In this document: positions 5,908 to 34,036 of the stretch, in pieces
Position numbering within the stretch: position 1 is the stretch's first letter
How the letters are laid out: each line of letters opens with the position of its first letter
From: a virus
Virus record (IMG/VR): IMGVR_UViG_3300025529_000020
Location: 1-37,835 of that record
DNA: 37,835 nucleotides
Strand: one strand, 5' to 3'
Translations under genes and position numbers: made by a program
The notes under the pieces: model-generated
The model's database searches: none
What the model saw: only the letters and a program-made list of their open reading frames with translations
What the model was told of the DNA's origin: nothing

Positions 5908-6291
5908 TCACTTAGGCAACGCCTTCTTTATCGCCTTACGCAGTCGCTGAGGGAATTTCTCCCTCTCCTTGTCCGCAGCGGGACGTGCGAAAGGCTGGGC
6001 TCTCATTTTCGAGGTCCCGAATTCCTGCCAATAACCGTAGTGGGCCTTATTGCCGGAACGGGGACCAACGTCCGCGATAATGTTGTGCTTGTCGGAACGC
6101 GAAGTGATCACCGATTTCAAGTGCCCAGTATTCACGGGGACCCGCTTCAACATTTCCGATTTCACAGCGCGCGCTGATGCGCGCACCGCATTCAACGCCT
6201 CCTCACGAGCGTCACCCTTCAATTTGCGGCACGCGGCATACAGGTCGTCAATGCCTTCGACCACCACGTGAAAACCCTTCTTCTTGGCCAC
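5908..6291 (-). CDS. HK97 gp10-like tail-component protein
   Basis: Position and size; lysine-rich termini typical of the family. Confidence 0.45.
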   Translation of the reverse strand: MAKKKGFHVVVEGIDDLYAACRKLKGDAREEALNAVRASARAVKSEMLKRVPVNTGHLKSVITSRSDKHNIIADVGPRSGNKAHYGYWQEFGTSKMRAQPFARPAADKEREKFPQRLRKAIKKALPK

Positions 6292-17108: not shown

Positions 17109-17323
17109 TGTCCAGACACACAGAGAGCCCCGGTACTGGGTAGCACCGGGGCTCGTGCGGTATGTGGTTATGGTGCTAGACGGTGGTCGGTGTCGACACG
17201 GTCACTCGGCCTCGGTGACCGGGTAGCCGACATGCCCGAGTCTCCGTTCTGAGTTGTGGTTGTGGTTGGGTGGTGCGGCCGCTGGGGCCGCACCGGTTCT
17301 ACTCGACTAGCGGAAACCGCTGG

Positions 17324-18034
17324 CTAGGCGACCTGTTCCCGGCCGGTGCCACCGCACTCACCGCACGCGATCGGCGGGGTGGCATCGTCCACCGGGAGTT
17401 CCCCATATCCGCCGCACGGGCGGCAGGACGGGGGGTTGGCCTGCACGTCCGCCTTGTAGGCGGACTCCAGCCCCTTCAGGGCCGAGAGCGCGGCCCGGGT
17501 CTCCGCCCGGAGCCGAGCGGAGATGAACTGCATCTGTTCCAGGACGGTGAGCTTCCGCACCCCATCCCGGAACGCGTTCACGCTGCCTCGGCGAACCTCG
17601 GCGGCGGCCTCCAACAGCTCCGAGGCTCCCCGACGATCCCGGTCTTCGGTGATCGCCGTTTCTGCGACTCGGATGAACATATCAGCGGCCGTGGTGCGCG
17701 GGGAGGCTGCCATTACCCGCGCGAGGGCGCGGGCCCGCACAGGCTTCCCGTTGACCCGCTCCACGTTAGTGGGGACGACCAGGTCAGTCCGGTGACTGGC
17801 GCGCTCCGCCACGGGGCGAGCGACCACATAAACCACACCGGGCTGAGGGGAGGGGAGAACGTCGTCCGCGTCTCCCAACGCCTCCCGGACCACGGGGATT
17901 CCGTTGATCTCCCCGTCCGGGTAGGTCTCGGCGGGGAGCCGAACCGGGGTCGCCTCCGGCTGGATTACCACCTCGTCCCCGTTCGCGGTGACGAGCGTGA
18001 CGGGGTGCGGGGTGAGGTTGACGATTCTGGTCAT
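17324..18034 (-). CDS. Hypothetical protein with C-terminal DnaJ-type CxxCxGxG zinc-finger pair
   Basis: ATG at 18034 with GGAGG RBS; C-terminus CRPCGGYG...CGECGGTG. Confidence 0.5.
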   Translation of the reverse strand: MTRIVNLTPHPVTLVTANGDEVVIQPEATPVRLPAETYPDGEINGIPVVREALGDADDVLPSPQPGVVYVVARPVAERASHRTDLVVPTNVERVNGKPVRARALARVMAASPRTTAADMFIRVAETAITEDRDRRGASELLEAAAEVRRGSVNAFRDGVRKLTVLEQMQFISARLRAETRAALSALKGLESAYKADVQANPPSCRPCGGYGELPVDDATPPIACGECGGTGREQVA

Positions 18035-19602: not shown

Positions 19603-20556
19603 TTACGCGGCTGCCAGCTCGACTACTACCCGCCTCAGCTTTCTCAGCGCAGCGGCCTTGAGGGAACGTACACGTCCGGGATCGATTCCCATGATGTGCG
19701 CGGTCTCGGCGACACTGAGTTCCGGACCGCCCAGTCCGGTCAGGTGTACCAGTGCCTCACGCTCCCGGGGGGACACGTGATCGAGCAGACGATGCACGAG
19801 GTCCCGAGTTTCCACACTGGCTAGTGCAGCGGCCGAGCGGTGGCACTCCGCCGTGTCCCCGATGGTCTGCGTGGCGCTCTCGTCACACAGTTCCGACACC
19901 GGGGTATCCACGGACACATAATGTAGGGCTTCGTGGATGGCATCGAACTGTGCGTAGGACAGACCACGTGCGGTTTTGTCGTCTAGCTGCTGTGCCACAT
20001 CTAGCCCTTCCCGCTCCCAGCGTTCAATACGGCGGTCCAGGATGGCGGCAGCCATGTCATCTCCGGAGTCCGCCATGTCCTGCAGTTCTCGGCCGGTCAA
20101 CCCCTCACGGTGGGCCCATTCGCGTGCGAGTACCGGGTCGTGTCCACACGCTTCCATGGCTCTCCAGTAGCGGTGCTGTGCGGACGAGGAGATGCGGAAC
20201 GGGGAGCTGGCTACAGCGGCCTCCCTCACAGCGTTCTGGATGTGGCGATACGCCACGGTCATAGGTTCTGCAGAACCATCCGGGTCGTAGTCTCGCAGAA
20301 CCTCCACCAGCGCCATTAGCGCGGCCTGGTAGAGGTCCGCGTACTCCGCACTACGCTGGTAGTTTCTGACCAGGTGGTGGATCTGGTCTTCGTAACGTGC
20401 GGCAAGGATGACAAGCCCTTCGTCTCCGTACGCGGGGAGCTGACGGTTGGGGACGTGATCAAGGCCCAGACGTTCTTCGTAGGCACGTGCGGCGGTGCGG
20501 ACTGTGGCACGGACGATGTGTGCGGGGGATCTGGTGGCGATCAGTTCATCCAACAT
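19603..20556 (-). CDS. Phage-encoded sigma-70 family RNA polymerase sigma factor
   Basis: Region 2-like segment DLYQAALMALVEVLRDYDP and region 4-like HTH LSVAETAHIMGIDPGRVRSLKAAALRKLRR. Confidence 0.75.
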   Translation of the reverse strand: MLDELIATRSPAHIVRATVRTAARAYEERLGLDHVPNRQLPAYGDEGLVILAARYEDQIHHLVRNYQRSAEYADLYQAALMALVEVLRDYDPDGSAEPMTVAYRHIQNAVREAAVASSPFRISSSAQHRYWRAMEACGHDPVLAREWAHREGLTGRELQDMADSGDDMAAAILDRRIERWEREGLDVAQQLDDKTARGLSYAQFDAIHEALHYVSVDTPVSELCDESATQTIGDTAECHRSAAALASVETRDLVHRLLDHVSPREREALVHLTGLGGPELSVAETAHIMGIDPGRVRSLKAAALRKLRRVVVELAAA

Positions 20557-23367: not shown

Positions 23368-25830
23368 CTAGCGTACCTGACCGAACACGTCACGGTTCCC
23401 ACTCTGCGGGGATGGGTGATCCGCCGCAGTGGGGGAGTTCGCGACCAGCCGCACTCCGATGAGTGTCTGACCACGCTTGGTTTTGACGCGGTCAATACCG
23501 CGTTCCTCTAGGGCCCTGTAGAACGTTTGTCGTTTCCACCGTTCCCGCGGAGGCAGGTTTTCCGCCTCACACCAGTCCATGTAGGCGTTGAACGCGGCGT
23601 TACCCAAAACGCGGTCCTCAGGGTTGCCGGTCTTCTCGAGAACGCCGGGTAGAAAACCCGACAGGGCATCCGAGATCTCTCGGTACTCCCTGGTCGCTTT
23701 ACGCACCACTCCCGGATCCTGCAGACCATTCCGGTACCACTCCACAGCCCCGCGGACTGCCCAAGCCAGAATACCTTCGGCTTCCGCACGGAGCTTATCG
23801 GTCAGCTCATAGTCGCGTTCGTGTGGCTCAAACTTCCTCCTAAACGGGATCATCTTCACCCGACGCCACAAACCATCGTCCTGACCACGGAACAGGGGCT
23901 TGTGGTTAGTGTCCATCAACAGCAGGAACGTGGGCACGAACTCGAAGAACTCCTGCCGCAGGAAGCGGGCCACCAGCACGTTTCCACCGGTGGCTTGCTT
24001 GAGCACTCCTTCCGCCATGGGCTTGTCACGGTCGCCTTCAGAAGCCCGGACAATTCGAGCGCCGCGTAGGGCAGCCAAGTCGTTGGGGATACCCCCCGAG
24101 CGCTCCTCGAAAGTACTGAACGGTGTAGTGCGGGAAATAGCAGAAAACACAGACGTGATCGTGTCCATGAACACGCTTTTCCCGTTCGCACCTTTACCCC
24201 ACAGCACAGCGAAGCATTGTTCGGCGGTGCTCCCTGTGATCCCGTACCCGATGAGCCGCTGCATGTACGCGGGCAATTCCGGGTTGTACGGGAAAATCTC
24301 CTCCAAGAATTTTTCCCAGCGCGGGCACTTGGCGTCCGGCCGGTAGTCCACGTCCACGTAGCGGGTGATCATGTCCTCACGGCGGTGGGGACGCAGCATT
24401 CCCGTACGCAGATCGATGGTGCCGTTTCGGACAGCCAACAGGTCCGCACGTGCGTCGAAATCGCTAGCGCGGACGCGCACACCAGGGACGCTTTGCAACT
24501 CGCGAATGATGTGGTCAATACTCCTGGTCATGAGGAAGCTTCGAGCTTCCTTGGCCTTCCCTACAAGAGCGAGTGCCGCACCAATGCGGTAAACCTCCTG
24601 TCGCACATGGGACTCGGACGGTACCCAGCAGCGTCCATCCCACACGAAAAAGCCCAGCCCAGGCGCGTAGCGGATACGGTTGTCCGCGAACGCCACCAGT
24701 ACGTGAGCCCGCATAACGTCCGTATCCGACTCTGAGAACCGGTCGTGGTACGCACGGTACAACTCGGCGGCGCGTTCCCCATCCTCACGAGTGACCGCAT
24801 CCAGCCCGGTGCGGCTCAGCGCTTCCTTAGCGTCGATGCGCCGTTCCTCGTCCGGAGTGCGGACAGGGCGGGCGGCGCGTACCGCTTCGTGGAGTTTCCC
24901 CGCGAACCCTGCAGGGTCGCGTTCCCGCCAGTCGGTGAGGTCGTCTCCGGCGTTGGGGATGACCAGGTGCCGAACCTCAACCCCGTGGTTACGGAGCGCG
25001 GTGGAGATAGTCTGAGTGAACCGCTGCCCCGCCTCGTCCGCGTCCCCCGCTACCACGACGAGGGAGTCCTTCAGCGCTTCCGCCAGTTCACGTGCGAGTG
25101 CCTCACTCGACATCGCTGCACCGCGGACCGCCACAGCGTCATAACCTGCAGCGACCGCGGTGAGCGCGTCCCCAGGCCCTTCCGTGATGACCACTACGCC
25201 GTAGGATCCGCCGCCGCGCAAAAATCCGTATCGTTGCCACACCTTCCCCTGGGGGTTGCTCAGGCTCACCCACCGGGCTTGACACTTCCCAGTCAGGTCC
25301 CTGCCCTGCAGGCCGCGCACAGTACCGTGGCGGTCGTAGAGAGGGACCACCAGTCGCGGAAACGCGCGGTACGTGCGGGACAGATACGGCAACGTGAACA
25401 CGTCACCGCCCGGGTCAACGCCCACACCGAGATCCGCGGCCTGGTCAACGGTCAACCCGAACCGCCGCTCCACATACTCGGCGGCTAGACGGGCATCGTC
25501 GGTGTACTGTTCCCGAAGCCGCTTGGACGTAGCGTCCACGTATGCGGCGACCGCGGCGATCTCTGCAGGGCCCACCTGGTCAGGCTGGGTGGTGATGAGC
25601 TGTTCCGGTGCGGTCCACTGAAACAGGTCGCGTTCCTGCATGCCGAGTCGTTTCAGAACGTCCTTGGTCTCGCATCCAGCGCGGCAAGTCATCAGCAGCC
25701 TTCCTTCGTTAGTCACCGCCAGCGCGAGTGACGGCCGCTGGTCATCATGTGCAGGACAGTGCACCACCATGTTGCGGCCCTCGTTGACAACGTGCGGAAA
25801 ACGCTCCAGGAACTTGTTGAAGTCGCGCAT
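23368..25830 (-). CDS. Bifunctional primase / D5-like helicase (zinc-binding, Toprim, P-loop NTPase)
   Basis: HCPAHDD...CRAGC zinc motif, Toprim-like ITEGPGDALT, Walker A GKGANGKS; ATG at 25830 with GAGGGGAAG RBS. Confidence 0.75.
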   Translation of the reverse strand: MRDFNKFLERFPHVVNEGRNMVVHCPAHDDQRPSLALAVTNEGRLLMTCRAGCETKDVLKRLGMQERDLFQWTAPEQLITTQPDQVGPAEIAAVAAYVDATSKRLREQYTDDARLAAEYVERRFGLTVDQAADLGVGVDPGGDVFTLPYLSRTYRAFPRLVVPLYDRHGTVRGLQGRDLTGKCQARWVSLSNPQGKVWQRYGFLRGGGSYGVVVITEGPGDALTAVAAGYDAVAVRGAAMSSEALARELAEALKDSLVVVAGDADEAGQRFTQTISTALRNHGVEVRHLVIPNAGDDLTDWRERDPAGFAGKLHEAVRAARPVRTPDEERRIDAKEALSRTGLDAVTREDGERAAELYRAYHDRFSESDTDVMRAHVLVAFADNRIRYAPGLGFFVWDGRCWVPSESHVRQEVYRIGAALALVGKAKEARSFLMTRSIDHIIRELQSVPGVRVRASDFDARADLLAVRNGTIDLRTGMLRPHRREDMITRYVDVDYRPDAKCPRWEKFLEEIFPYNPELPAYMQRLIGYGITGSTAEQCFAVLWGKGANGKSVFMDTITSVFSAISRTTPFSTFEERSGGIPNDLAALRGARIVRASEGDRDKPMAEGVLKQATGGNVLVARFLRQEFFEFVPTFLLLMDTNHKPLFRGQDDGLWRRVKMIPFRRKFEPHERDYELTDKLRAEAEGILAWAVRGAVEWYRNGLQDPGVVRKATREYREISDALSGFLPGVLEKTGNPEDRVLGNAAFNAYMDWCEAENLPPRERWKRQTFYRALEERGIDRVKTKRGQTLIGVRLVANSPTAADHPSPQSGNRDVFGQVR

Positions 25831-25889
25831 ACTTCCCCTCGCAGTGTGCTTACCTGAGAAACCGGTTCCGCGCTTGCGGTGTAACGGGC

Positions 25890-26267
25890 TTATTGCCGGA
25901 GCTCTTTGACCACGCGCACGAACGTCGCACCGGACATGACCACCAAGCACTCGTGGGGACCGCGACCACGAACTTTCACCGCGGCCACACCGAAAGGCAG
26001 TCCAGCGTTCCGCGCTTCCTGTTCGGCTTGGCGAACGTACGCGGGCAGCTCGTGACGTGCCGTGTTTTTACACTCCACGACAAACGGGACTACCCACAGA
26101 TCCCCTACGTCGTGTATCCCCTGCTGTGCTTGGCGACGTGCGTTCAGTGGGGATGTGGGATCTAGGAACTCGTCTCCATCAGGGGTCACGAGCCCCAGTT
26201 CTCGGTTGAGGTAGCGTGCGAACTCGGTTTCCCACCGAGTCCCACGTCTTTTATTCGGGTTAGCCAC
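25890..26267 (-). CDS. PD-(D/E)xK family nuclease, possible Holliday junction resolvase (VRR-NUC-like)
   Basis: E...D(VGD)...ExK (VVECK) arrangement in a 125-aa protein next to replication genes. Confidence 0.45.
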   Translation of the reverse strand: MANPNKRRGTRWETEFARYLNRELGLVTPDGDEFLDPTSPLNARRQAQQGIHDVGDLWVVPFVVECKNTARHELPAYVRQAEQEARNAGLPFGVAAVKVRGRGPHECLVVMSGATFVRVVKELRQ

Positions 26268-28786: not shown

Positions 28787-29614
28787 CTAGGTTCGCCGCT
28801 GTGTGCCAGTCAACAACTGTCCGCCAGTCGCCAACGGGGATCCCAACACTGCCCGTGCCTCCTCACGCTGCCACGTGAGTGCCTCACGGAGCGCCAGAAA
28901 CACCTGATGCATTTCTGCATCCACTCGGACCGGTACCAGTGACCACCGCTCCGGGGTCACGTGGAGCACTGCGCCGCCATCCACACGCGGCATGTCCCGG
29001 GAAGTACCGTCTACGCCGATCAGGCGATCTGCGTACGCGTACGCGGACAACTGCAACGCAACAGTGGGATACACGTCACGGGACGTTTTCCAGTCCACGA
29101 TGATCAGATGCGGAGTCCCTGATCTGTCCGGGGTGGGGGTACGGTCCGGAGCCAGCCAGACACGCAGCAGAGCATCAAAGCTGCCTGCGTACCGAAACCT
29201 GTCCGACCACACCACCTCCTCAGCTGCCACGAGCTCAGGACGTACCGTGTCCAGAAACTCCGCAAAATGATTGCGGTACGGGACGAGGTCGTGCTCCACG
29301 TAACGCGGAGACTCCCCCCTGAGCATGCGCTCAAACAGATCGTGAGCTTTGCTGCCCAGCTCAGCTCGTGCTTGCGTATACCGCCGTGGCGCGGCCTTGA
29401 GCAGGTCTATCGCGGCGGTGGGGTCTGTCTGGACCAGGCCTTGTACCGTATTCCAGTTCTCCACCGCGTACGTTGCCACAGTTTTCGCGGCCCACGGTGG
29501 TAAGAAAGGCTTGTCCAGGACGCTGATGATAGAGGTTACCCCAGGCACTTTGGTGCCAGTGTCGGGGTCCACATACCAGCGCGCTCCCCCACGGGTGAGG
29601 GTTCGGATGGTCAT
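28787..29614 (-). CDS. PD-(D/E)xK (RecB/Cas4-like) exonuclease
   Basis: Motifs D...LIIVDWKTSR and QLSAYAYA (QxxxY); ATG at 29614 with AAAGGAGC RBS. Confidence 0.6.
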   Translation of the reverse strand: MTIRTLTRGGARWYVDPDTGTKVPGVTSIISVLDKPFLPPWAAKTVATYAVENWNTVQGLVQTDPTAAIDLLKAAPRRYTQARAELGSKAHDLFERMLRGESPRYVEHDLVPYRNHFAEFLDTVRPELVAAEEVVWSDRFRYAGSFDALLRVWLAPDRTPTPDRSGTPHLIIVDWKTSRDVYPTVALQLSAYAYADRLIGVDGTSRDMPRVDGGAVLHVTPERWSLVPVRVDAEMHQVFLALREALTWQREEARAVLGSPLATGGQLLTGTQRRT

Positions 29615-29635
29615 ATGTCGCTCCTTTCGCTGTAT

Positions 29636-29672
29636 TCCTAGTTACAGGTCCGCAGCGTGGGGAGCGCGCGTA
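29636..29672 (-). promoter_or_regulatory. Conserved motif site 3 (GTTACAGGTCC ... GGGGAGCGCGCG) with adjacent A5T5 tract
   Basis: First copy of a tandemly duplicated ~117-bp promoter-like unit upstream of the exonuclease gene. Confidence 0.5.
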
Positions 29673-29752
29673 CCGTGGCAGAAAAATTTTTGGTCGACGT
29701 GCTCCGCACCTGGTGAGGGTTCGGATCGCCACGTCGCCCCTTCCGGATCTGT

Positions 29753-29790
29753 CTCTAGTTACAGGTCCGCGGCGGTGGGAGCGCGCGGGT
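29753..29790 (-). promoter_or_regulatory. Conserved motif site 4 (tandem duplicate of site 3)
   Basis: Second copy: GTTACAGGTCC at 29758-29768, GCGCGC at 29781-29786, A4T4 tract at 29798-29808. Confidence 0.5.
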
Positions 29791-29883
29791 CGCGGCAGAA
29801 AATTTTCTGACCGACGTAGCTGCAGCGGGATGGGCACGGAGAGTGAGGGCATGCCCTACGCGGAGTAGAGGAGATGGGGGAGT

Positions 29884-29977
29884 GGTGACGAGTGACGATT
29901 TAGACCTTGTTTTTGTAGTGCTATAGGAGAACCCATAGAACAATGCAAAAACAGGGTCTACATCGTCACTCGTCACC
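29884..29977. repeat. AT-rich island B, bounded by perfect 16-bp inverted repeats GGTGACGAGTGACGAT / ATCGTCACTCGTCACC
   Basis: Perfect 16-bp inverted arms, inner inverted repeat AGACCTTGTTTTTG/CAAAAACAGGGTCT, AT-rich centre. Confidence 0.7.
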
Positions 29978-30048
29978 CCTGGACGAAGAAACCCCGCCAT
30001 CCGTGTCCGGACAGCGGGGCTTCTACGTCGTGTTACTACACCGCGTCG

Positions 30049-30732
30049 CTACCCCAGCGCGGAGCGCAGTACGGCCACGCTTTCTTCAAGCGACACTATC
30101 GCGGCCTGGATCGTTTCCCGCGGCTTACCGGTCAGCGCCACGGTGGCAGACACCGCATCCCTTGCCGCGGTCACGTTCCGTACGTCCTCAGCCAGCTGGC
30201 TCACCGCGCGCACCACATCCTCCGGTGGGCTGTCGGGGTGTACTGTGATGGCCTCTAGTCGACGTAGCGCAGTTTCCGCGCGCTGCCGCTGGCGCTCTCG
30301 GCGTTCCGCCTGCCGTTCTTTCGGCGGTGTCGGGGTGATGCCGTAGTGCGCCAGCGCTTCCGGCGTGTACAGTCCGTTAGCGCGCATGTAGTCGATCCGC
30401 AGCGCTGCCACGTGGTATCTGATCAGCGACTGTAGAGACGCTTCGGAGTCGCTGGGGATGCCGGCTTTCTCATACAGCTGCTGGACTGCTTCCCGGTATC
30501 CCGGGGACGTGCCGCACAGATCTGGCCAACCATCCTTATCCCGGTAGCGTGCCCGCAGATGCAGCACTACCAGCGCTAGGTTGCGTGCTGTTTGTGTCGC
30601 ACGGCCCTGCAGTCTCACATAGTCGCGCACCAGTTTTGCGCCACGGTCGATGAGCTCGTGTACAGGTGCGTCATCCTGGAACACCGTGGCCTCGTCATCT
30701 CGCGGTGGAGTTACCAGCTGTAGTTGTGTCAT
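30049..30732 (-). CDS. Hypothetical protein (227 aa)
   Basis: ATG at 30732; Arg/Glu-rich helical segment ERQAERRERQRQRAE. Confidence 0.45.
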   Translation of the reverse strand: MTQLQLVTPPRDDEATVFQDDAPVHELIDRGAKLVRDYVRLQGRATQTARNLALVVLHLRARYRDKDGWPDLCGTSPGYREAVQQLYEKAGIPSDSEASLQSLIRYHVAALRIDYMRANGLYTPEALAHYGITPTPPKERQAERRERQRQRAETALRRLEAITVHPDSPPEDVVRAVSQLAEDVRNVTAARDAVSATVALTGKPRETIQAAIVSLEESVAVLRSALG

Positions 30733-30760
30733 ACGTCTAGCATACCGGGTGGATACACAA

Positions 30761-30795
30761 GAAAGACCCCGTGACGAGATTCACGGGGTCTTTCG
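30761..30795. terminator. Terminator-like hairpin (GACCCCGTG...CACGGGGTC flanked by T-rich runs on both strands)
   Basis: 9-bp GC stem with AAAG/CTTTCG flanks, just after the stop of the HExxH peptidase gene. Confidence 0.55.
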
Positions 30796-30804
30796 TCCGT
30801 GTTG

Positions 30805-31464
30805 TCATAGGTCGTCTGCGGAACGGTACAGCTCCCCACACTGCGTACATGCCACGGTCTGCGCGTTCAGCACAGTGCGGGACAGCCATAGTGGTCGTTC
30901 CGGAACACAGCGGCACACCGCCTTCGGGCGACGGTTGCTGCTGTGCGGGGTACGTTTCGTTCCGGTGTTCCGTTCCGCGTTCCGTTCCGGATCGGCGTTC
31001 TCCCACTCGCTGCGGCCCACTGCGGCTTCCGCCACGCACGCGGCCCACTCCCCGATCTCGGTGGGGAGCCTCATGTCCGCGTACCCCACATCTTGAGGGG
31101 GGTTGCCACCGCGCCACTCCAGTCCCATGTGTTCCGCTAGTGCGCGGAACCGCGAGTTATGATATCGGCCGCGCTTGGAGGTGTCCGCAACCCCGAGAGC
31201 GTGTGCAAGGGCATGTGCCGCTTCATGGGCAACTTGGCACACCACCTCACGAGGGGGGCGAGCTAGCGCATCGGGGAGTGTCTGCAGCACGTGTGTGTCG
31301 CCAAGAGAAGGCGTGAACCGCAACCACGCGTTCGTGCGTCCGATGGTGGGGACTACGTTCACGGTGACTGCGGGTAGTTGTGGTTCTCGTTCTCGCAGCA
31401 GGTCCCAGATGCGGCGTAGGGTGCGCGCGGTGACTTGCTCTGGGCTCATCTGTGTGGTTGACAT
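30805..31464 (-). CDS. HExxH zinc metallopeptidase (SprT-like or ImmA/IrrE-like) with C-terminal Cys-rich zinc ribbon
   Basis: VAHEAAHALAHALG (HExxH) and C-terminal CRCVPERP...CTQCGELY; ATG at 31464 with GGGGGA RBS (start uncertain, the ORF extends to 31524). Confidence 0.5.
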   Translation of the reverse strand: MSTTQMSPEQVTARTLRRIWDLLREREPQLPAVTVNVVPTIGRTNAWLRFTPSLGDTHVLQTLPDALARPPREVVCQVAHEAAHALAHALGVADTSKRGRYHNSRFRALAEHMGLEWRGGNPPQDVGYADMRLPTEIGEWAACVAEAAVGRSEWENADPERNAERNTGTKRTPHSSNRRPKAVCRCVPERPLWLSRTVLNAQTVACTQCGELYRSADDL

Positions 31465-31561
31465 GCTGACATCCCCCATTCCTATGTGTGGAGTACAGTC
31501 TATCGGTTGCGCAGTATGGGGCAACGGCCCCGGGAAGCGTTACCCGGGGCCGCTGTCGACG

Positions 31562-32401
31562 TTACGCCGGAACTGTCGTGGCCAGTTTCCGTCGCGCGTC
31601 GCGTAGCACGTTCCTTCCCCAGCGGTCCGTGCGTCCGTAGCGGGTCCCGATTTCCGCTCCGGTGAGCGTGGTTCCGTTCCGGAGCTGTTCCGCGACCCAT
31701 TCGACAGCGGAACGGCGTTCCGCGCTGTGCGGGGGTACCACGGACACCGGAACGGTCGTAGGGGCTCCCTCCTCCACTACCGGAACGCGGACATTCCGTT
31801 CCTCGTCCCGCTGTTGTTCCTCGTTCCGCTCTTCGTTCCGCGCTGTTCCGCTCTTCGTTCCGCTGCTGTTCCGTTCCTCGTTCCGTTCCTCGTCCCCCGG
31901 TTGTTCCGTGTTCCGTTCCTCGTCCCGTTCCCCATTCCGCTGTTGTTCCTCGTCCCGTTCCTCGTTCCGCTCTTCGTTCCGTTCCTCGTTCCGCTGCTGT
32001 TCCGCCCTGTTCCGTCTACCTGCAGCAAGGGCCACCGACGCAACGACCACTAGTCCATCTACAGACAGTGGCAGCAGGATGGCCACAAGCTCCGACTCCC
32101 CGTACTGGAGCAGGAGCCCGCGCATGTGACCGTAGGAGACCACGGCCGCGGCCAGCGCTACGAGGAAAGCTCCCACCCACTCAACTGCGGACAGCAGTCC
32201 ACGCGGACGCTGTCCACGAACCATCATCTCTGCGACCAACAGCAGCGCTACCGGTGCCCATGCCGCAAACAGCATGGCACCGATGTCTGTTCCGTCCGCG
32301 TTCCGTTCCGCGGCGTGTGCCACGTTCGCGGCGATGCTGGCTCCTGCGCCGAGTAGGAACGCTGTCCAGGGGATGGCGTTTGATCTCGGTTTTCCGCTCA
32401 C
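31562..32401 (-). CDS. Membrane protein with central EERN tandem-repeat low-complexity region (start uncertain)
   Basis: Three or more hydrophobic helices, then (EERN)n repeats, then Arg-rich C-terminus; first possible start after the upstream gene stop is GTG at 32401. Confidence 0.45.
   Translation of the reverse strand: MSGKPRSNAIPWTAFLLGAGASIAANVAHAAERNADGTDIGAMLFAAWAPVALLLVAEMMVRGQRPRGLLSAVEWVGAFLVALAAAVVSYGHMRGLLLQYGESELVAILLPLSVDGLVVVASVALAAGRRNRAEQQRNEERNEERNEERDEEQQRNGERDEERNTEQPGDEERNEERNSSGTKSGTARNEERNEEQQRDEERNVRVPVVEEGAPTTVPVSVVPPHSAERRSAVEWVAEQLRNGTTLTGAEIGTRYGRTDRWGRNVLRDARRKLATTVPA
31790..32015. repeat. Imperfect tandem array of GTTCC(G/T)-containing units (about 12-bp period) encoding EERN repeats
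   Basis: Plus strand reads TTCCGTTCCTCGTTCCGCT... repeatedly; translates as EERNEERNEERDEE on the minus strand. Confidence 0.8.
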
Positions 32402-32514
32402 TCGTGGGTTCTCCGTTCCGTTCCGCTGTTTCCGTTCCGGGGCTTCCGTTCCGCCAGCGGTCCGGGAATTCCGTTCCGCTGGCGTTCCTCTACTTCCGTT
32501 CCGCTGGTGTTCCT
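32402..32514. repeat. Iteron-like array: five direct copies of TTCCGTTCCGC(T/C)(G/A)G (minus-strand CCAGCGGAACGGAA) in intergenic DNA
   Basis: Copies at about 32414, 32431, 32445, 32470 and 32494 between the stop of gene 32515..32937 and the start of the membrane protein gene. Confidence 0.7.
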
Positions 32515-32937
32515 CTACTCCCGCTCCGCCACTCGGTGACCGTGTTCCGTGGCCTCCACGTAAACCGCTCCAGCCTTCCGAAACGCCCTCAGCATCCCCC
32601 GCTCCAAGAGCGCAGTGATATGGCGTGCGGTTACTCCTGCAGCGCGGCACGCACTCGGCGACATGTGCAGCGCTCCGTTCTTGATGATGGTGCGCAGTGC
32701 GTTCCGCTGCTTCGCCGAGAGTGTGCGCGCGTTGAGCCGTCGTCCGCGACGCACTGCTTCCGCGGCCTGTTCGGGGGTTGTATACCGGAACGATAGATAA
32801 CCCACCCCCAACAGGTAGGCCCTCCACGGCCGAGCGGGGTTGTCGCCACGCCAAGAGACCAGGCCGATGATCTCGGGGCCGTTCTCACTGAGAACCACGC
32901 GCTCTGGGCGGGACGGGCGGTTGTTCTGTGTGGTCAT
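32515..32937 (-). CDS. Hypothetical protein (140 aa), possibly DNA-binding
   Basis: ATG at 32937 with GGAGG RBS downstream of terminator H3; Arg/Lys-rich. Confidence 0.45.
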   Translation of the reverse strand: MTTQNNRPSRPERVVLSENGPEIIGLVSWRGDNPARPWRAYLLGVGYLSFRYTTPEQAAEAVRRGRRLNARTLSAKQRNALRTIIKNGALHMSPSACRAAGVTARHITALLERGMLRAFRKAGAVYVEATEHGHRVAERE

Positions 32938-32967
32938 AATGTCCTCCTGTACGTCTGGTGGTGTGTA

Positions 32968-33006
32968 TGAAAAAGCCCCGGGATTTCCCCGGGGCCGATC
33001 GGCCGG
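32968..33006 (-). terminator. Conserved terminator H3 (GCCCCGGGA..TCCCCGGGGC hairpin + CUUUUUCAU) with adjacent GGCCGATCGGCC palindrome
   Basis: Same hairpin core and CCGATCGG element as H1. Confidence 0.6.
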
Positions 33007-33300
33007 TCAGGGCCGACGACGGCGGTTGATCACCACCATGTCGGTCTCGTCCTCACCCAGGAACAGGGCGAAGATCTGCCATTCGGCAATGGAGTCGTTG
33101 AAGCCCTCCATCTCATCGTTTTCATCGAACGCGATGAAGTGGCGGCCGTTGCCCAGCGGGCGGATGTAGCGCGCGAAGCGCTCCTCTCCGGAGATGGATT
33201 CGCGGAAGCCGATCAGGGTTCCAGCAGCCACGTCGTGGCCGTGAATGGTGTGGATGGGGAAGGAGCGGGCGGCGGCGTTGGCGGCGGCGAAGCTGGTCAT
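33007..33300 (-). CDS. Hypothetical acidic protein (97 aa)
   Basis: ATG at 33300 with AAGGAGGA RBS downstream of a sigma-70-like promoter. Confidence 0.5.
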   Translation of the reverse strand: MTSFAAANAAARSFPIHTIHGHDVAAGTLIGFRESISGEERFARYIRPLGNGRHFIAFDENDEMEGFNDSIAEWQIFALFLGEDETDMVVINRRRRP

Positions 33301-33353
33301 TGGATCCTCCTTGTGTGTGCGTTGGTGGGGTGTTTCCCCCTTCGTGTGATTCC

Positions 33354-33383
33354 AATATAGCAGACTTGCTCAGTACTGCGCAA
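33354..33383 (-). promoter_or_regulatory. Sigma-70-like promoter (TTGCGC - 18 nt - TATATT)
   Basis: Minus-strand TTGCGC AGTACTGAGCAAGTCTGC TATATT; spacer nearly identical to the promoter at 18496-18524. Confidence 0.6.
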
Positions 33384-33393
33384 CCAATAGGGC

Positions 33394-33428
33394 AGAAAAA
33401 GTGTGGCCAACGGAAACCCGCTGGCCAT
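33394..33428 (-). terminator. Intrinsic terminator after the kinase gene
   Basis: GGCCAGCGG-gttt-CCGTTGGCC hairpin followed by ACACTTTTTCT on the minus strand. Confidence 0.6.
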
Positions 33429-33435
33429 CCACTAC

Positions 33436-33975
33436 CTATCCACCACGCAACAGCGCATCCACCGCCTCGTAGAGTTCCGGGATGTCTCCGGAGTTGGGCA
33501 GTACGGCGTCCGCGAGATCCGCGGGAATAGCGGTCTCGGACGGATGCGTGTTCGCAGGGCCCACACCAGGACGCTGTACCCACACGAGGGAGAACCCTCG
33601 ACTTCGCAGCGCAAGTGCTTCGTTGCGGTACCGCACATCGGTCACCACCACGGGACCGGACAGTGCATCCAGTCGGCGTAGCGCGTGCTCCACCCACACC
33701 GATTCGCCGAGTGAGTCCCGGACTCCCGCACCTAGGCCTTGGAGAAGTTCGCGCACTTCCGGGATCGTCCTCTTCACACGGTCCCAGCCGTACGCCTCGA
33801 CTGCGTCTCGCAGGCGTAGCCCATCCCTCGTGATGAGTGGGTTCGTACTCAGCAGCACACTTCGGACGGGATCCGCGAACGCTACACGCGTGTATCCGCG
33901 GCACGCTAGGTACTCGGCGATGGTGTCCTTGCCGCTGCCTGCATATCCGATGAGGCCGATTTTTGACCGGTTCAC
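33436..33975 (-). CDS. P-loop nucleotide kinase, dNMP kinase-like
   Basis: Walker A GLIGYAGSGKDT near the N-terminus (phage dNMP kinases carry SGKDT); GTG start with GGAGGTG RBS. Confidence 0.55.
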   Translation of the reverse strand: MNRSKIGLIGYAGSGKDTIAEYLACRGYTRVAFADPVRSVLLSTNPLITRDGLRLRDAVEAYGWDRVKRTIPEVRELLQGLGAGVRDSLGESVWVEHALRRLDALSGPVVVTDVRYRNEALALRSRGFSLVWVQRPGVGPANTHPSETAIPADLADAVLPNSGDIPELYEAVDALLRGG

Positions 33976-33989
33976 GTCACCTCCCCGGT

Positions 33990-34036
33990 GTAGGACCTAT
34001 AGGTGTTACAGGTCCCAGCACCGGGGAGTGCGCGTA
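33990..34036 (-). promoter_or_regulatory. Conserved motif site 5 (GTTACAGGTCC ... GGGGAGTGCGCG) with GGACCT...AGGTCC inverted repeat
   Basis: GTTACAGGTCC at 34005-34015; overlaps the stop codon of the upstream holin-like gene. Confidence 0.5.

Follow-up and report, generated by a model that had tools for sequence, protein, structure and literature searches.

A strand-biased CGGAAC array across a DUF2637-family membrane protein gene of a phiC31-like actinophage is selected as nucleic acid

The 37,835-nt viral DNA analyzed here (IMG/VR record IMGVR_UViG_3300025529_000020, positions 1 to 37,835; below, the window) encodes, at 31562 to 32401 on its minus strand, a membrane protein of the DUF2637 family whose central part is an (EERN)n-like repeat tract. 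Our analysis establishes that this gene is real, that its repeat linker is polymorphic, and that a short word, (G)CGGAAC(G), which recurs in the gene and in its flanks, is selected at the nucleic-acid level. The EERN peptide is largely the translation of this word in a place where the protein tolerates it. As to the purpose of the array, we tentatively prefer the possibility, still well short of assured, that it is a field of candidate sites for the protein's own membrane-anchored helix-turn-helix (HTH) domain, which would tie phage DNA to the membrane.

A one-stranded array of CGGAAC

An earlier note on this DNA, made from the sequence alone, described the EERN region as a low-complexity tract of the protein encoded by a 12-bp tandem array. 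The repeat exists: Tandem Repeats Finder reports it at 31818-32014 with a period of 12, 17.9 copies, 69% matches and a score of 121, overlapped by periods of 30 (score 124) and 42 (score 184). The tandem array is real but imperfect, and it translates to an (EERN)n-like sequence. The peptide repeat is only part of the picture, as the same DNA word also fills the spacer between the gene and its upstream neighbor g140, the rest of the gene, and the adjoining gene for a SprT-like metallopeptidase. Because CGGAAC occurs outside the tract, on one strand and in all frames, the reading shifts from a peptide repeat to a nucleic-acid element.

The minus strand of the window holds 56 copies of CGGAAC, 34 of them within 30890-32550, where only six lie on the opposite strand (P 8e-6). 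Thirteen of the 34 are inside the EERN tract. The other 21, where the rest of the window predicts 0.94 (Poisson P 2e-21), are found in the spacer (6), in the parts of the gene coding for the transmembrane (TM) domain (3) and the HTH domain (4), in the SprT-like gene (7) and in the last codons of g140 (1), while the reverse copies lie in the HTH-coding part and the SprT-like gene (three each). In the SprT-like gene, forward and reverse copies occupy the inter-domain linker ERNAERNTGT (30959-30989) and other sites, the reverse copies mostly the linker. Within the DUF2637 gene the word stands in all three frames (11 copies in f0, 5 in f1 and 4 in f2). Spacing between copies is irregular, with preferred distances of 5, 7 and 11-12 nt and some longer ones, and the flanking bases give a consensus of R-R-CGGAAC-R-G, approximately GCGGAACG. 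Isolated copies elsewhere in the window are not placed at gene starts.

The spacer is made up of direct repeats (Tandem Repeats Finder period 25, 3.5 copies, score 104), and its last CGGAAC copy overlaps the GGAG ribosome-binding site of the DUF2637 gene at 32411-32414. These copies are noncoding, because the frame is closed upstream of the gene in two relatives, L001 and L004. Both the number of spacer repeat units and the spacer length (74-154 nt) differ among relatives. A 14-nt-arm inverted repeat at 32452-32484 (CGCCAGCGGTCCGG / CCGTTCCGCTGGCG, 86% complementary) overlaps two of the motif copies and could be a transcript hairpin or a DNA dyad site.

Palindromic forms of the word are also present. 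Both half-sites of GCGGAACGCCGTTCCGC, in the HTH-coding part, are kept in six of six close relatives, with L002 differing at the central base only, and synonymous sites near the palindrome vary. Two further palindromes, GTTCCGGAAC (at about 30897-30906) and GGAACGTTCC, recur in the SprT-like gene. The enrichment and conservation of reverse copies and palindromes favor recognition of double-stranded DNA.

Evidence for selection on the word

Codon resampling, in which the amino acids were fixed and codons were drawn from the usage of this phage in 2000 trials, gave 4.0±1.8 copies of CGGAAC for the DUF2637 gene and never more than 10, against the 20 observed. Observed counts also exceeded expectation in the TM part (3 vs 0.5), at the C-terminus (forward 4 vs 1.0, reverse 4 vs 0.3) and in the SprT-like gene (7 vs 1.3±1.1). 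The arginine codons of the array are almost all CGG, which supplies only 22% of arginine codons in the phage.

Synonymous sites were compared among six close relatives, within the conserved TM-coding and HTH-coding regions. Third positions of codons for conserved amino acids vary in 3 of 16 cases inside the motif and in 77 of 146 outside it (Fisher P 0.016). The string GCG GAA CGG AAC in the first loop is invariant among the six, and a replacement of Asp by Ser (GAC GGA ACA to AGC GGA ACG) keeps the word. In the relative L015, one forward copy is swapped for a reverse copy at the same position.

A one-stranded cluster of 23-55 copies is present in all relatives of the lineage for which DNA was examined (L001-L005, L010, L015 and L041-L043). 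The L004/L005 lineage, with a protein only about 50% identical and an AEPVPAE/ERH-like linker, carries 23 copies in the L004-type gene where 4.0 are expected, spelled through AEQ, RN, ARN, GRNGT, AER and AEP, and eight more in the L004-type spacer. It is on the copies outside the tract, the noncoding copies and this cross-lineage comparison that we base the conclusion that selection acts on the word itself, maintaining about 35-55 copies, most of them on the same strand, over the upstream spacer, the entire gene and the one after it.

A simpler account would be that the region is only a charged low-complexity linker, that the word is a by-product of slippage and codon bias, and that the protein serves, for example, in superinfection exclusion, a role put forward in the earlier note. 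The array is indeed an imperfect tandem repeat of very variable length, E/R/K-rich helices are a known type of linker and the tract is partly predicted to be helical, other DUF2637 proteins have unrelated low-complexity linkers, and this membrane protein belongs to the immunity region, adjoining a repressor-like gene. Against it stand the 21 copies outside the tract, six of them noncoding, together with the use of all three frames, the retention of copies at synonymous sites of the conserved TM- and HTH-coding regions, the skewed arginine codons, and a lineage with a Pro/Ala-rich linker that keeps the word. Pure protein low complexity is excluded as the whole story, and we hold this account as framed here to be very improbable; superinfection exclusion as such is compatible with any of the readings considered below. 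PADLOC returned no match to a defense or exclusion system, its only hit being a low-complexity one (E 0.03). The locus offers a clear example of a "low-complexity repeat" in a protein that is in truth the translation of a selected DNA element, which matters for the interpretation of repeat proteins in phages.

When 2.9 million viral contigs were scanned for paired copies of the word, only this lineage and unrelated cases were recovered, and therefore the array is lineage-specific. The unrelated case that was inspected, L025, is a Val-Pro repeat protein; GTTCCG arises trivially from Val-Pro repeat proteins in unrelated low-GC phages. A literature search on GGAAC in actinophages produced nothing apparently relevant, as judged by titles and abstracts.

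Two general roles for the word were considered and set aside. AGCGG is embedded in many of the copies, but one central cluster would be an odd place for a Chi-like protection role. GGAAC equals the -35 consensus of extracytoplasmic function (ECF) sigma promoters, and a sigma factor is encoded by the phage; the array strand has almost no T-containing -10-like partners.

The DUF2637 gene and its polymorphic linker

The start of the gene had been called ambiguous in the earlier note, which named GTG 32401 as the first start past the upstream stop, and this codon is the true start. The open reading frame (ORF; start GTG 32399-32401, stop TAA 31562-31564) has four in-frame start codons, GTG 32401, GTG 32650, GTG 32827 and TTG 32854, of which the last three lie within g140 (stop TAG 32515-32517). 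GTG 32401 is the first past that stop, and the ribosome-binding site named above lies 9 nt 5' of it. A start at MSGK or VSGK was called independently in 10 of 10 close homologs, and two other public assemblies carry an identical 279-aa product called with the same start. In L001 a stop 24 nt before the start closes the upstream frame, as does one 54 nt before it in L004, and therefore the longer N-terminus of the listed ORF is not conserved; a programmed frameshift or N-terminal extension from g140 is ruled out on the same grounds. In two relatives (L002, 5641-5714; L003, 1778-1851) the spacer 5' of the DUF2637 gene consists of three to four tandem copies of the gene's own start region (CGAGTGAGYGG...), which create in-frame upstream GTGs (RVSG...RVSG...RVSGK), so that these relatives, unlike the window or L001, could produce isoforms with a longer N-terminus.

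The ORF is uninterrupted in every relative. Among close relatives, ratios of nonsynonymous to synonymous substitution (dN/dS) range from 0.02 to 0.14 in the TM part and from 0.10 to 0.16 in the C-terminus (dS about 0.15-0.6), which shows that the gene is translated and constrained. It is a genuine conserved gene under purifying selection in the early/immunity region of a phiC31-like temperate actinophage, whose host is probably a strain of Nocardiopsaceae or of Thermobifida.

The tract itself had been predicted to be prone to slippage and to generate length variants, and the polymorphism check suggested at the time confirms this. Measured between AAGRRN and VRVPVVE in 13 close alleles (72-94% identity overall), the linker has 12 different lengths (49, 65, 69, 72, 73, 77, 79, 81, 81, 84, 85, 94 and 103 aa) between almost invariant flanks, and the repeat units shift among ERN, ERK, TEQ, AEQ, PEQ and SPER from allele to allele. 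The linker-coding DNA expands and contracts rapidly. With the length variable and the ORF intact, neither outcome that the earlier note named as refuting it is seen.

Architecture of the protein

The protein matches PF10935 (DUF2637) at 41.4 bits, above the curated gathering cut-off of 22.8 (E 1.8e-10), and nearly all of the 97 homologs retrieved carry the same family. An NCBIfam search gave no useful match, and DUF2637 is mentioned only incidentally in the literature that our search returned; the gene is an additional member of a family that has no assigned function.

An AlphaFold2 model built with a 40-sequence alignment has helices at residues 9-36, 40-62, 70-99 and 104-165, the membrane part of the last extending to about residue 127. 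By Kyte-Doolittle hydropathy there are three strongly hydrophobic segments and a moderate fourth, and the placement of K/R relative to D/E (positive-inside) fits an N-in/C-in topology, which places the linker and the C-terminal domain in the cytoplasm. That the product is a membrane protein, as first noted, is upheld by these helices, hydropathy and charges. The membrane domain is 95-98% identical among close relatives, contains the family motifs ANVxHA, WAPxALL and PLSVDG of a multi-pass membrane domain, and has seven columns invariant in the 40 sequences (N26, P50, A52, L53, P111, V114 and G116).

The fourth helix runs uninterrupted from the membrane into the first half of the EERN tract, over about 35 linker residues (pLDDT, the model's local confidence score, 86-93 for residues 131-160), while residues 167-214 are of low confidence and the second half of the linker is predicted to be disordered. 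This recalls ER/K-type single alpha-helix linkers, in that the linker is E/R/K/Q-rich and residues ~128-165 are predicted to form one helix continuing TM4. It differs from them in that the EERN period lacks the i/i+4 E-K pattern that is classical for such linkers, disorder is predicted for the second half, and a sister lineage has a Pro/Ala-rich linker. Unrelated repeat linkers occur in other DUF2637 genes, for example GCCGTTGCC repeats in an Actinoplanes prophage (L014/L021, 4456-4618).

The C-terminal three-helix bundle (residues 224-276) is modeled with pLDDT 97 in the full protein and 92 when the domain is modeled alone. Profile comparison with the PDB gave 2x48 (E 2.6e-4) and GerE (E 2e-3), followed by LexA, mycobacteriophage Xis and sigma factors. 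The C-termini of relatives significantly match HTH_11, Sigma70_r4_2, GerE and HTH_23, and the window's own domain matches Pfam Sigma70_r4 weakly (E 0.12). The top Foldseek matches of both the whole model and the domain alone are all DNA-binding HTH proteins (sigma region 4, LexA, MepR, DosR), none of them significant; the best, to sigma region 4, are at 31-33% identity with E > 0.5. We take this domain as a predicted, cytoplasm-facing HTH DNA-binding domain of generic type. A membrane-anchored regulator, the second role suggested in the earlier note, fits this architecture, given the confidently modeled C-terminal HTH.

Most of the DUF2637 relatives inspected are built in the same order, the four-helix TM domain being followed by a long low-complexity linker and a C-terminal HTH. 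What this lineage adds is the E/R/N(K) tandem-repeat linker and the dense CGGAAC array, and most relatives examined lack the array.

The candidate reader of the word

The DUF2637 gene is the only gene that always accompanies the array. As readers, g140 is ruled out, since the gene at its position in L004 is unrelated, and the SprT-like protein and the Repressor_c-like repressor encoded downstream are unlikely, since L015 lacks both and L010 lacks the repressor, yet the array is kept.

When DUF2637 loci are grouped by the first residues of the HTH recognition helix, they fall into clearly separate classes of local CGGAAC plus GTTCCG density. Loci with T/S-D-R-W-G-R have 24-35 copies per kb in the window type and the L004 type, 8 copies at the gene where 1.2 are expected and 10 where 0.6 are expected in a second cluster in L006, and 8 where 1.6 are expected in L058; the counts observed in L006 and L058 were not reached in any of 500 simulations. 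Nine loci whose helix begins SESWGRT, SASWGRT, SERWGRD, SQSWGRT, SPTWGRE or GERWGRD show background density. Enrichment is found in four of the four DRWGR lineages (window type, L004, L006 and L058), and a further search for lineages with a DRWGR-type HTH found none. This covariation of helix and word is the main, and correlative, support for the suggestion that CGGAAC pairs with the DRWGR-type HTH as its cognate site.

Proposed function and alternatives

We propose that the HTH with the T/S-D-R-W-G-R recognition helix may bind the CGGAAC array, and that a long spacer would thereby link the phage genome or this locus to the cytoplasmic membrane. The linker-coding region, being free to vary in sequence, would store the sites, and the copies over the ribosome-binding site and the 5' end could also allow autoregulation. 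The tether might be used to organize replication at the membrane or to hand the DNA over to an FtsK/TraB-type translocase.

Parts of this arrangement have precedents. The early protein p16.7 of phage phi29 attaches phage DNA to the membrane through an N-terminal membrane anchor, a helical spacer and a small C-terminal DNA-binding domain, and the protein described here likewise has a membrane anchor, a helical spacer and a C-terminal helical domain predicted to bind DNA; p16.7 differs in having one TM helix, no sequence specificity and an unrelated sequence. The iterons of the lambda origin lie in the linker-coding part of gene O. The sps palindrome lies inside spdA2 of plasmid pIJ101 (PMC4170104). 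As in these two cases, the candidate cis sites here are placed within a gene of the same module, preferentially where the protein tolerates change. Unlike them, the unit is 6-8 bp, the copies are tenfold more numerous and spill into the spacer and the next gene, and the protein is membrane-bound and has no match to a replication family.

Several points weigh against the tether. Recent tandem duplication inflates the codon-resampling excess within the tract, whose copies are therefore not independent. The four positive lineages are related, and shared ancestry could explain the correlation of HTH and motif; in many DUF2637 relatives whose HTH is similar, no site array is detectable in the few kb examined. 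Sequence and fold matches point to a generic HTH only, and no fold match is significant. The bias toward one strand over 1.7 kb is not required of a simple binder of double-stranded DNA, and fits a directional process or a role at the RNA level better.

A directional process is the substance of what we regard as the main rival, although an unlikely one, namely that the array is a signal of the clt or KOPS (FtsK-orienting polar sequence) kind that loads or directs an FtsK/TraB-type double-stranded DNA translocase of the host or of a resident conjugative element. The DUF2637 protein would then be a Spd-like membrane partner and not the reader, and phage DNA would be moved between mycelial compartments or between cells. 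The clt loci of Streptomyces plasmids consist of direct 8-bp repeats that are bound by the FtsK-like TraB and may overlap coding DNA, and in intramycelial spreading TraB works together with four-TM Spd proteins that bind DNA (PMC4447253, PMC4170104). One of these, the four-TM membrane protein SpdB2, is oligomeric, binds double-stranded DNA and interacts with TraB; homologs exist in some actinophages and might help phage DNA to spread (PMC4447253).

The link comes from other DUF2637 loci. In L006, a locus resembling a conjugative element, the order is DUF2637, a 142-aa ORF and a 767-aa FtsK/SpoIIIE-like protein (phrog_1358, E 1.3e-25), and directly after the FtsK-like gene a 500-nt noncoding stretch has five copies of GCGGAACG, with no reverse copy, and nine of CGGAAC, all on one strand. 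TraB-like genes also neighbor DUF2637 genes in L019 (a Streptomonospora chromosome) and in L012, where traB is followed by repeats of a different 8-mer, TGTCGCGG. The 34:6 strand bias would suit a directional motor, and the array resembles clt with its TraB recognition sequences (TRS), and KOPS, in being made of direct repeats of the 8-bp class in one orientation. The position of the DUF2637 genes next to traB in L006, L019 and L012 likewise resembles that of spd genes.

Other observations count against a translocase signal. No FtsK-like protein is encoded in the window by tblastn and Pfam, and linkage to traB together with the word was seen only in the non-phage locus L006. The TraB of L019 is 72% identical to that of L006 and almost identical in its C-terminal region, but L019 has no CGGAAC array and a different DUF2637 HTH; therefore the motif follows the type of the DUF2637 HTH and not TraB. 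There are 34-55 copies over 1.7 kb here, as opposed to a handful over tens of bp in clt. SpdB2 differs in binding DNA non-specifically and in having an N-terminal coiled coil, and identity of DUF2637 with SpdB was ruled out for pIJ101 SpdB, which has no Pfam match and an hhalign probability of 2.6% against the DUF2637 alignment. phiC31 has no DUF2637 gene. The likeness in kind to clt/Spd systems is strong, but the locus departs from them on several counts, and the lack of a translocase gene, the unrelated SpdB and the array-free L019 are the reasons for keeping the translocase signal as a rival and not as the lead.

A combination is also conceivable, in which the phage has taken over a conjugative-element module, consisting of a membrane HTH protein and an amplified, oriented array of 8-bp-class sites equivalent to clt/KOPS, so that its genome would be caught at the membrane or septum and handed to an FtsK/TraB-type motor; we consider this distinctly unlikely. 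If it were true, phage or prophage DNA could spread between compartments of the mycelium, or be mobilized between cells, without virions, and a real link to a TraB-type translocase would join phage biology to the double-stranded DNA conjugation and intramycelial spreading of mycelial actinomycetes.

A role at the RNA level would be that GGAAC words in the message of g140, the DUF2637 gene and the SprT-like gene are recognized by a protein or an RNA, which thereby regulates how the message is translated or how stable it is. In favor are the strong bias of the array to one strand and its confinement to a unit of these three genes that is bracketed by the terminator-like hairpins at 32974-32996 and 30761-30794; copies also overlap the GGAG or AGGAG ribosome-binding site and first codons in both the window and L004 lineages, about ten of them in L004 covering that site and the first 18 codons. 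However, reverse-complement copies and palindromes are enriched and conserved, and L015 has replaced a forward copy by a reverse one in the same place. In L004, seven copies precede the putative promoter and a hairpin. In L006, most linker copies are in reverse orientation and the second cluster is in a different intergenic region. Rfam, searched at a permissive threshold over 29500-34000, gave no family. We think a function in mRNA has only a slim chance of being correct.

The array could also be a replication origin or iteron field within coding DNA, of the kind known from lambda O, SPP1 gene 38 or P4 ori/crr, read for example by the Toprim/D5_N primase-helicase. The genome has one such cluster only, located where the early region begins, with direct repeats in a tolerant linker-coding region, and the phage encodes a P4-alpha-like primase-helicase at 23368..25950. 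On the other side, there is no AT-rich unwinding element in or next to the array, where the minimum GC of 40-nt windows is 0.45, and the local AT-rich spot is outside it (29898-29937). The unit is of 6-8 bp with irregular spacing and not of 17-22 bp as in iterons; the same word accompanies the DUF2637 gene in the non-phage element L006, which has different replication genes; and the product, in which a small HTH is joined to four TM helices, matches no replication-protein family. The AT-richer palindrome at 29881-29980, described below, would be a more conventional candidate, and we judge an origin in the array to be highly doubtful.

DUF2637 is widespread in actinobacterial mobile elements without an assigned function, and this locus gives a concrete and testable handle on it in the form of a candidate word, (G)CGGAAC(G), a candidate reader in the DRWGR-type HTH, and natural copy-number variants.

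Neighboring genes and genome context

Table 1. Positions of the features discussed, in window coordinates
Feature	Position	Strand	Description
Strand-biased (G)CGGAAC(G) array	30890..32550	-	34 coding-strand copies, 6 opposite-strand, ~1.66 kb
DUF2637-family gene	31562..32401	-	279 aa, GTG start, TAA stop
N-terminal membrane domain, aa 1-128	32017..32401	-	Four TM helices predicted, N-in/C-in (AlphaFold2, hydropathy, charges)
Charged E/R/N/Q linker, aa 129-205	31786..32016	-	Imperfect 12-bp tandem array, hypervariable, 13 CGGAAC copies
C-terminal three-helix HTH domain (predicted), aa 224-279	31565..31732	-	AlphaFold2 and PDB profile matches
Palindrome GCGGAACGCCGTTCCGC	31707..31723	.	Inside HTH-coding part
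Noncoding spacer, g140/DUF2637 gene	32402..32514	-	~25-bp direct repeats, 6 CGGAAC copies
g140	32515..32937	-	140 aa, no family match; array begins in its last codons
SprT-like Zn-metallopeptidase gene	30805..31524	-	Pfam SprT-like E 0.002; phrog_6361 E 2.6e-14
G+C-rich hairpin, DUF2637/SprT-like junction	31522..31555	-	Inverted repeat I4, 13-nt arms, 92% complementary, no T run
Terminator-like hairpin 5' of g140	32974..32996	-	10-pair stem, then TTTTT
Terminator-like hairpin after SprT-like gene	30761..30794	-	14-pair perfect stem, T-rich tail
Promoter-like TTGCGC-18 nt-TATATT 5' of g97	33354..33383	-	Read from sequence

Gene content and order match phiC31, with all genes on one strand: terminase, portal, coat, tape measure, lysins, dNMP kinase, exonuclease (gp1-like), gp3-like, Toprim/D5_N primase-helicase, PolA, endonuclease VII, a sigma-70-family factor and a serine integrase. 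In phiC31, the interval from dNMP kinase to gp1 holds nothing but the large repressor gene c and gp54, and no DUF2637 homolog is present in that phage. The same slot here holds g97, g140, the DUF2637 gene, the SprT-like metallopeptidase gene and a 227-aa Repressor_c-like gene. g140 is co-oriented with the DUF2637 gene and 81-91% identical in close relatives; an unrelated 143-aa gene replaces it in L004. Nucleotide and protein searches of INPHARED with the locus gave no match, nor did a tblastn search of PLSDB plasmids with the TM domain, the query of both protein searches possibly having been masked by the BLAST low-complexity filter.

The SprT-like protein has an HExxH motif and a C-terminal Cys-rich ribbon, and its gene lies immediately 5' of the Repressor_c-like gene (30049-30732). 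The arrangement recalls protease/repressor pairs such as ImmA/ImmR.

The element 5' of g97 is a candidate promoter that was absent from the output of the consensus scan. A near-identical element, TTGyGCAGTACTGA-N-TA(T/G)(A/T)(T/G)T, lies directly 5' of the DUF2637 gene in L004 (~5940-5975), and in both the window and L004 the promoter-like element is followed by a CA-rich leader and AGGAG.

Two further structures lie beyond the Repressor_c-like gene. The 430-nt gap between it and the exonuclease gene contains a 45-nt-arm inverted repeat (29881-29980, 84% complementary, 10-nt loop) at the most AT-rich spot of the region (GC 0.35 per 40 nt), a candidate operator, origin or terminator that gave spurious miRNA-family matches in Rfam. 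On the minus strand at 29590-29810 there are two direct copies of about 100 nt, each AAAATTTTCTGCC...GCGGACCTGTAACTAG...ATCCGAACCCTCACC; the second enters the start of the exonuclease gene (ATG 29614), and the arrangement looks like a duplicated promoter and 5' region.

L015 (JAFIDK010000020.1) is a 5.3-kb contig deposited as Algoriphagus aestuarii (Bacteroidota), with 63% GC. The actinophage module is present in it, with proteins 77-98% identical, and the contig probably entered that assembly as a contaminant.

The sigma-70-family factor of the window (19603-20556, 317 aa) has regions 2 and 4. At 17259-18022 lies the sole stretch in the first 25 kb with nucleotide similarity to deposited phages, being 86-87% similar to hypothetical genes of the Thermobifida phages P318 and P1312; its GC of 0.68, compared with about 0.61 around it, suggests a recently exchanged gene and hints at host range.

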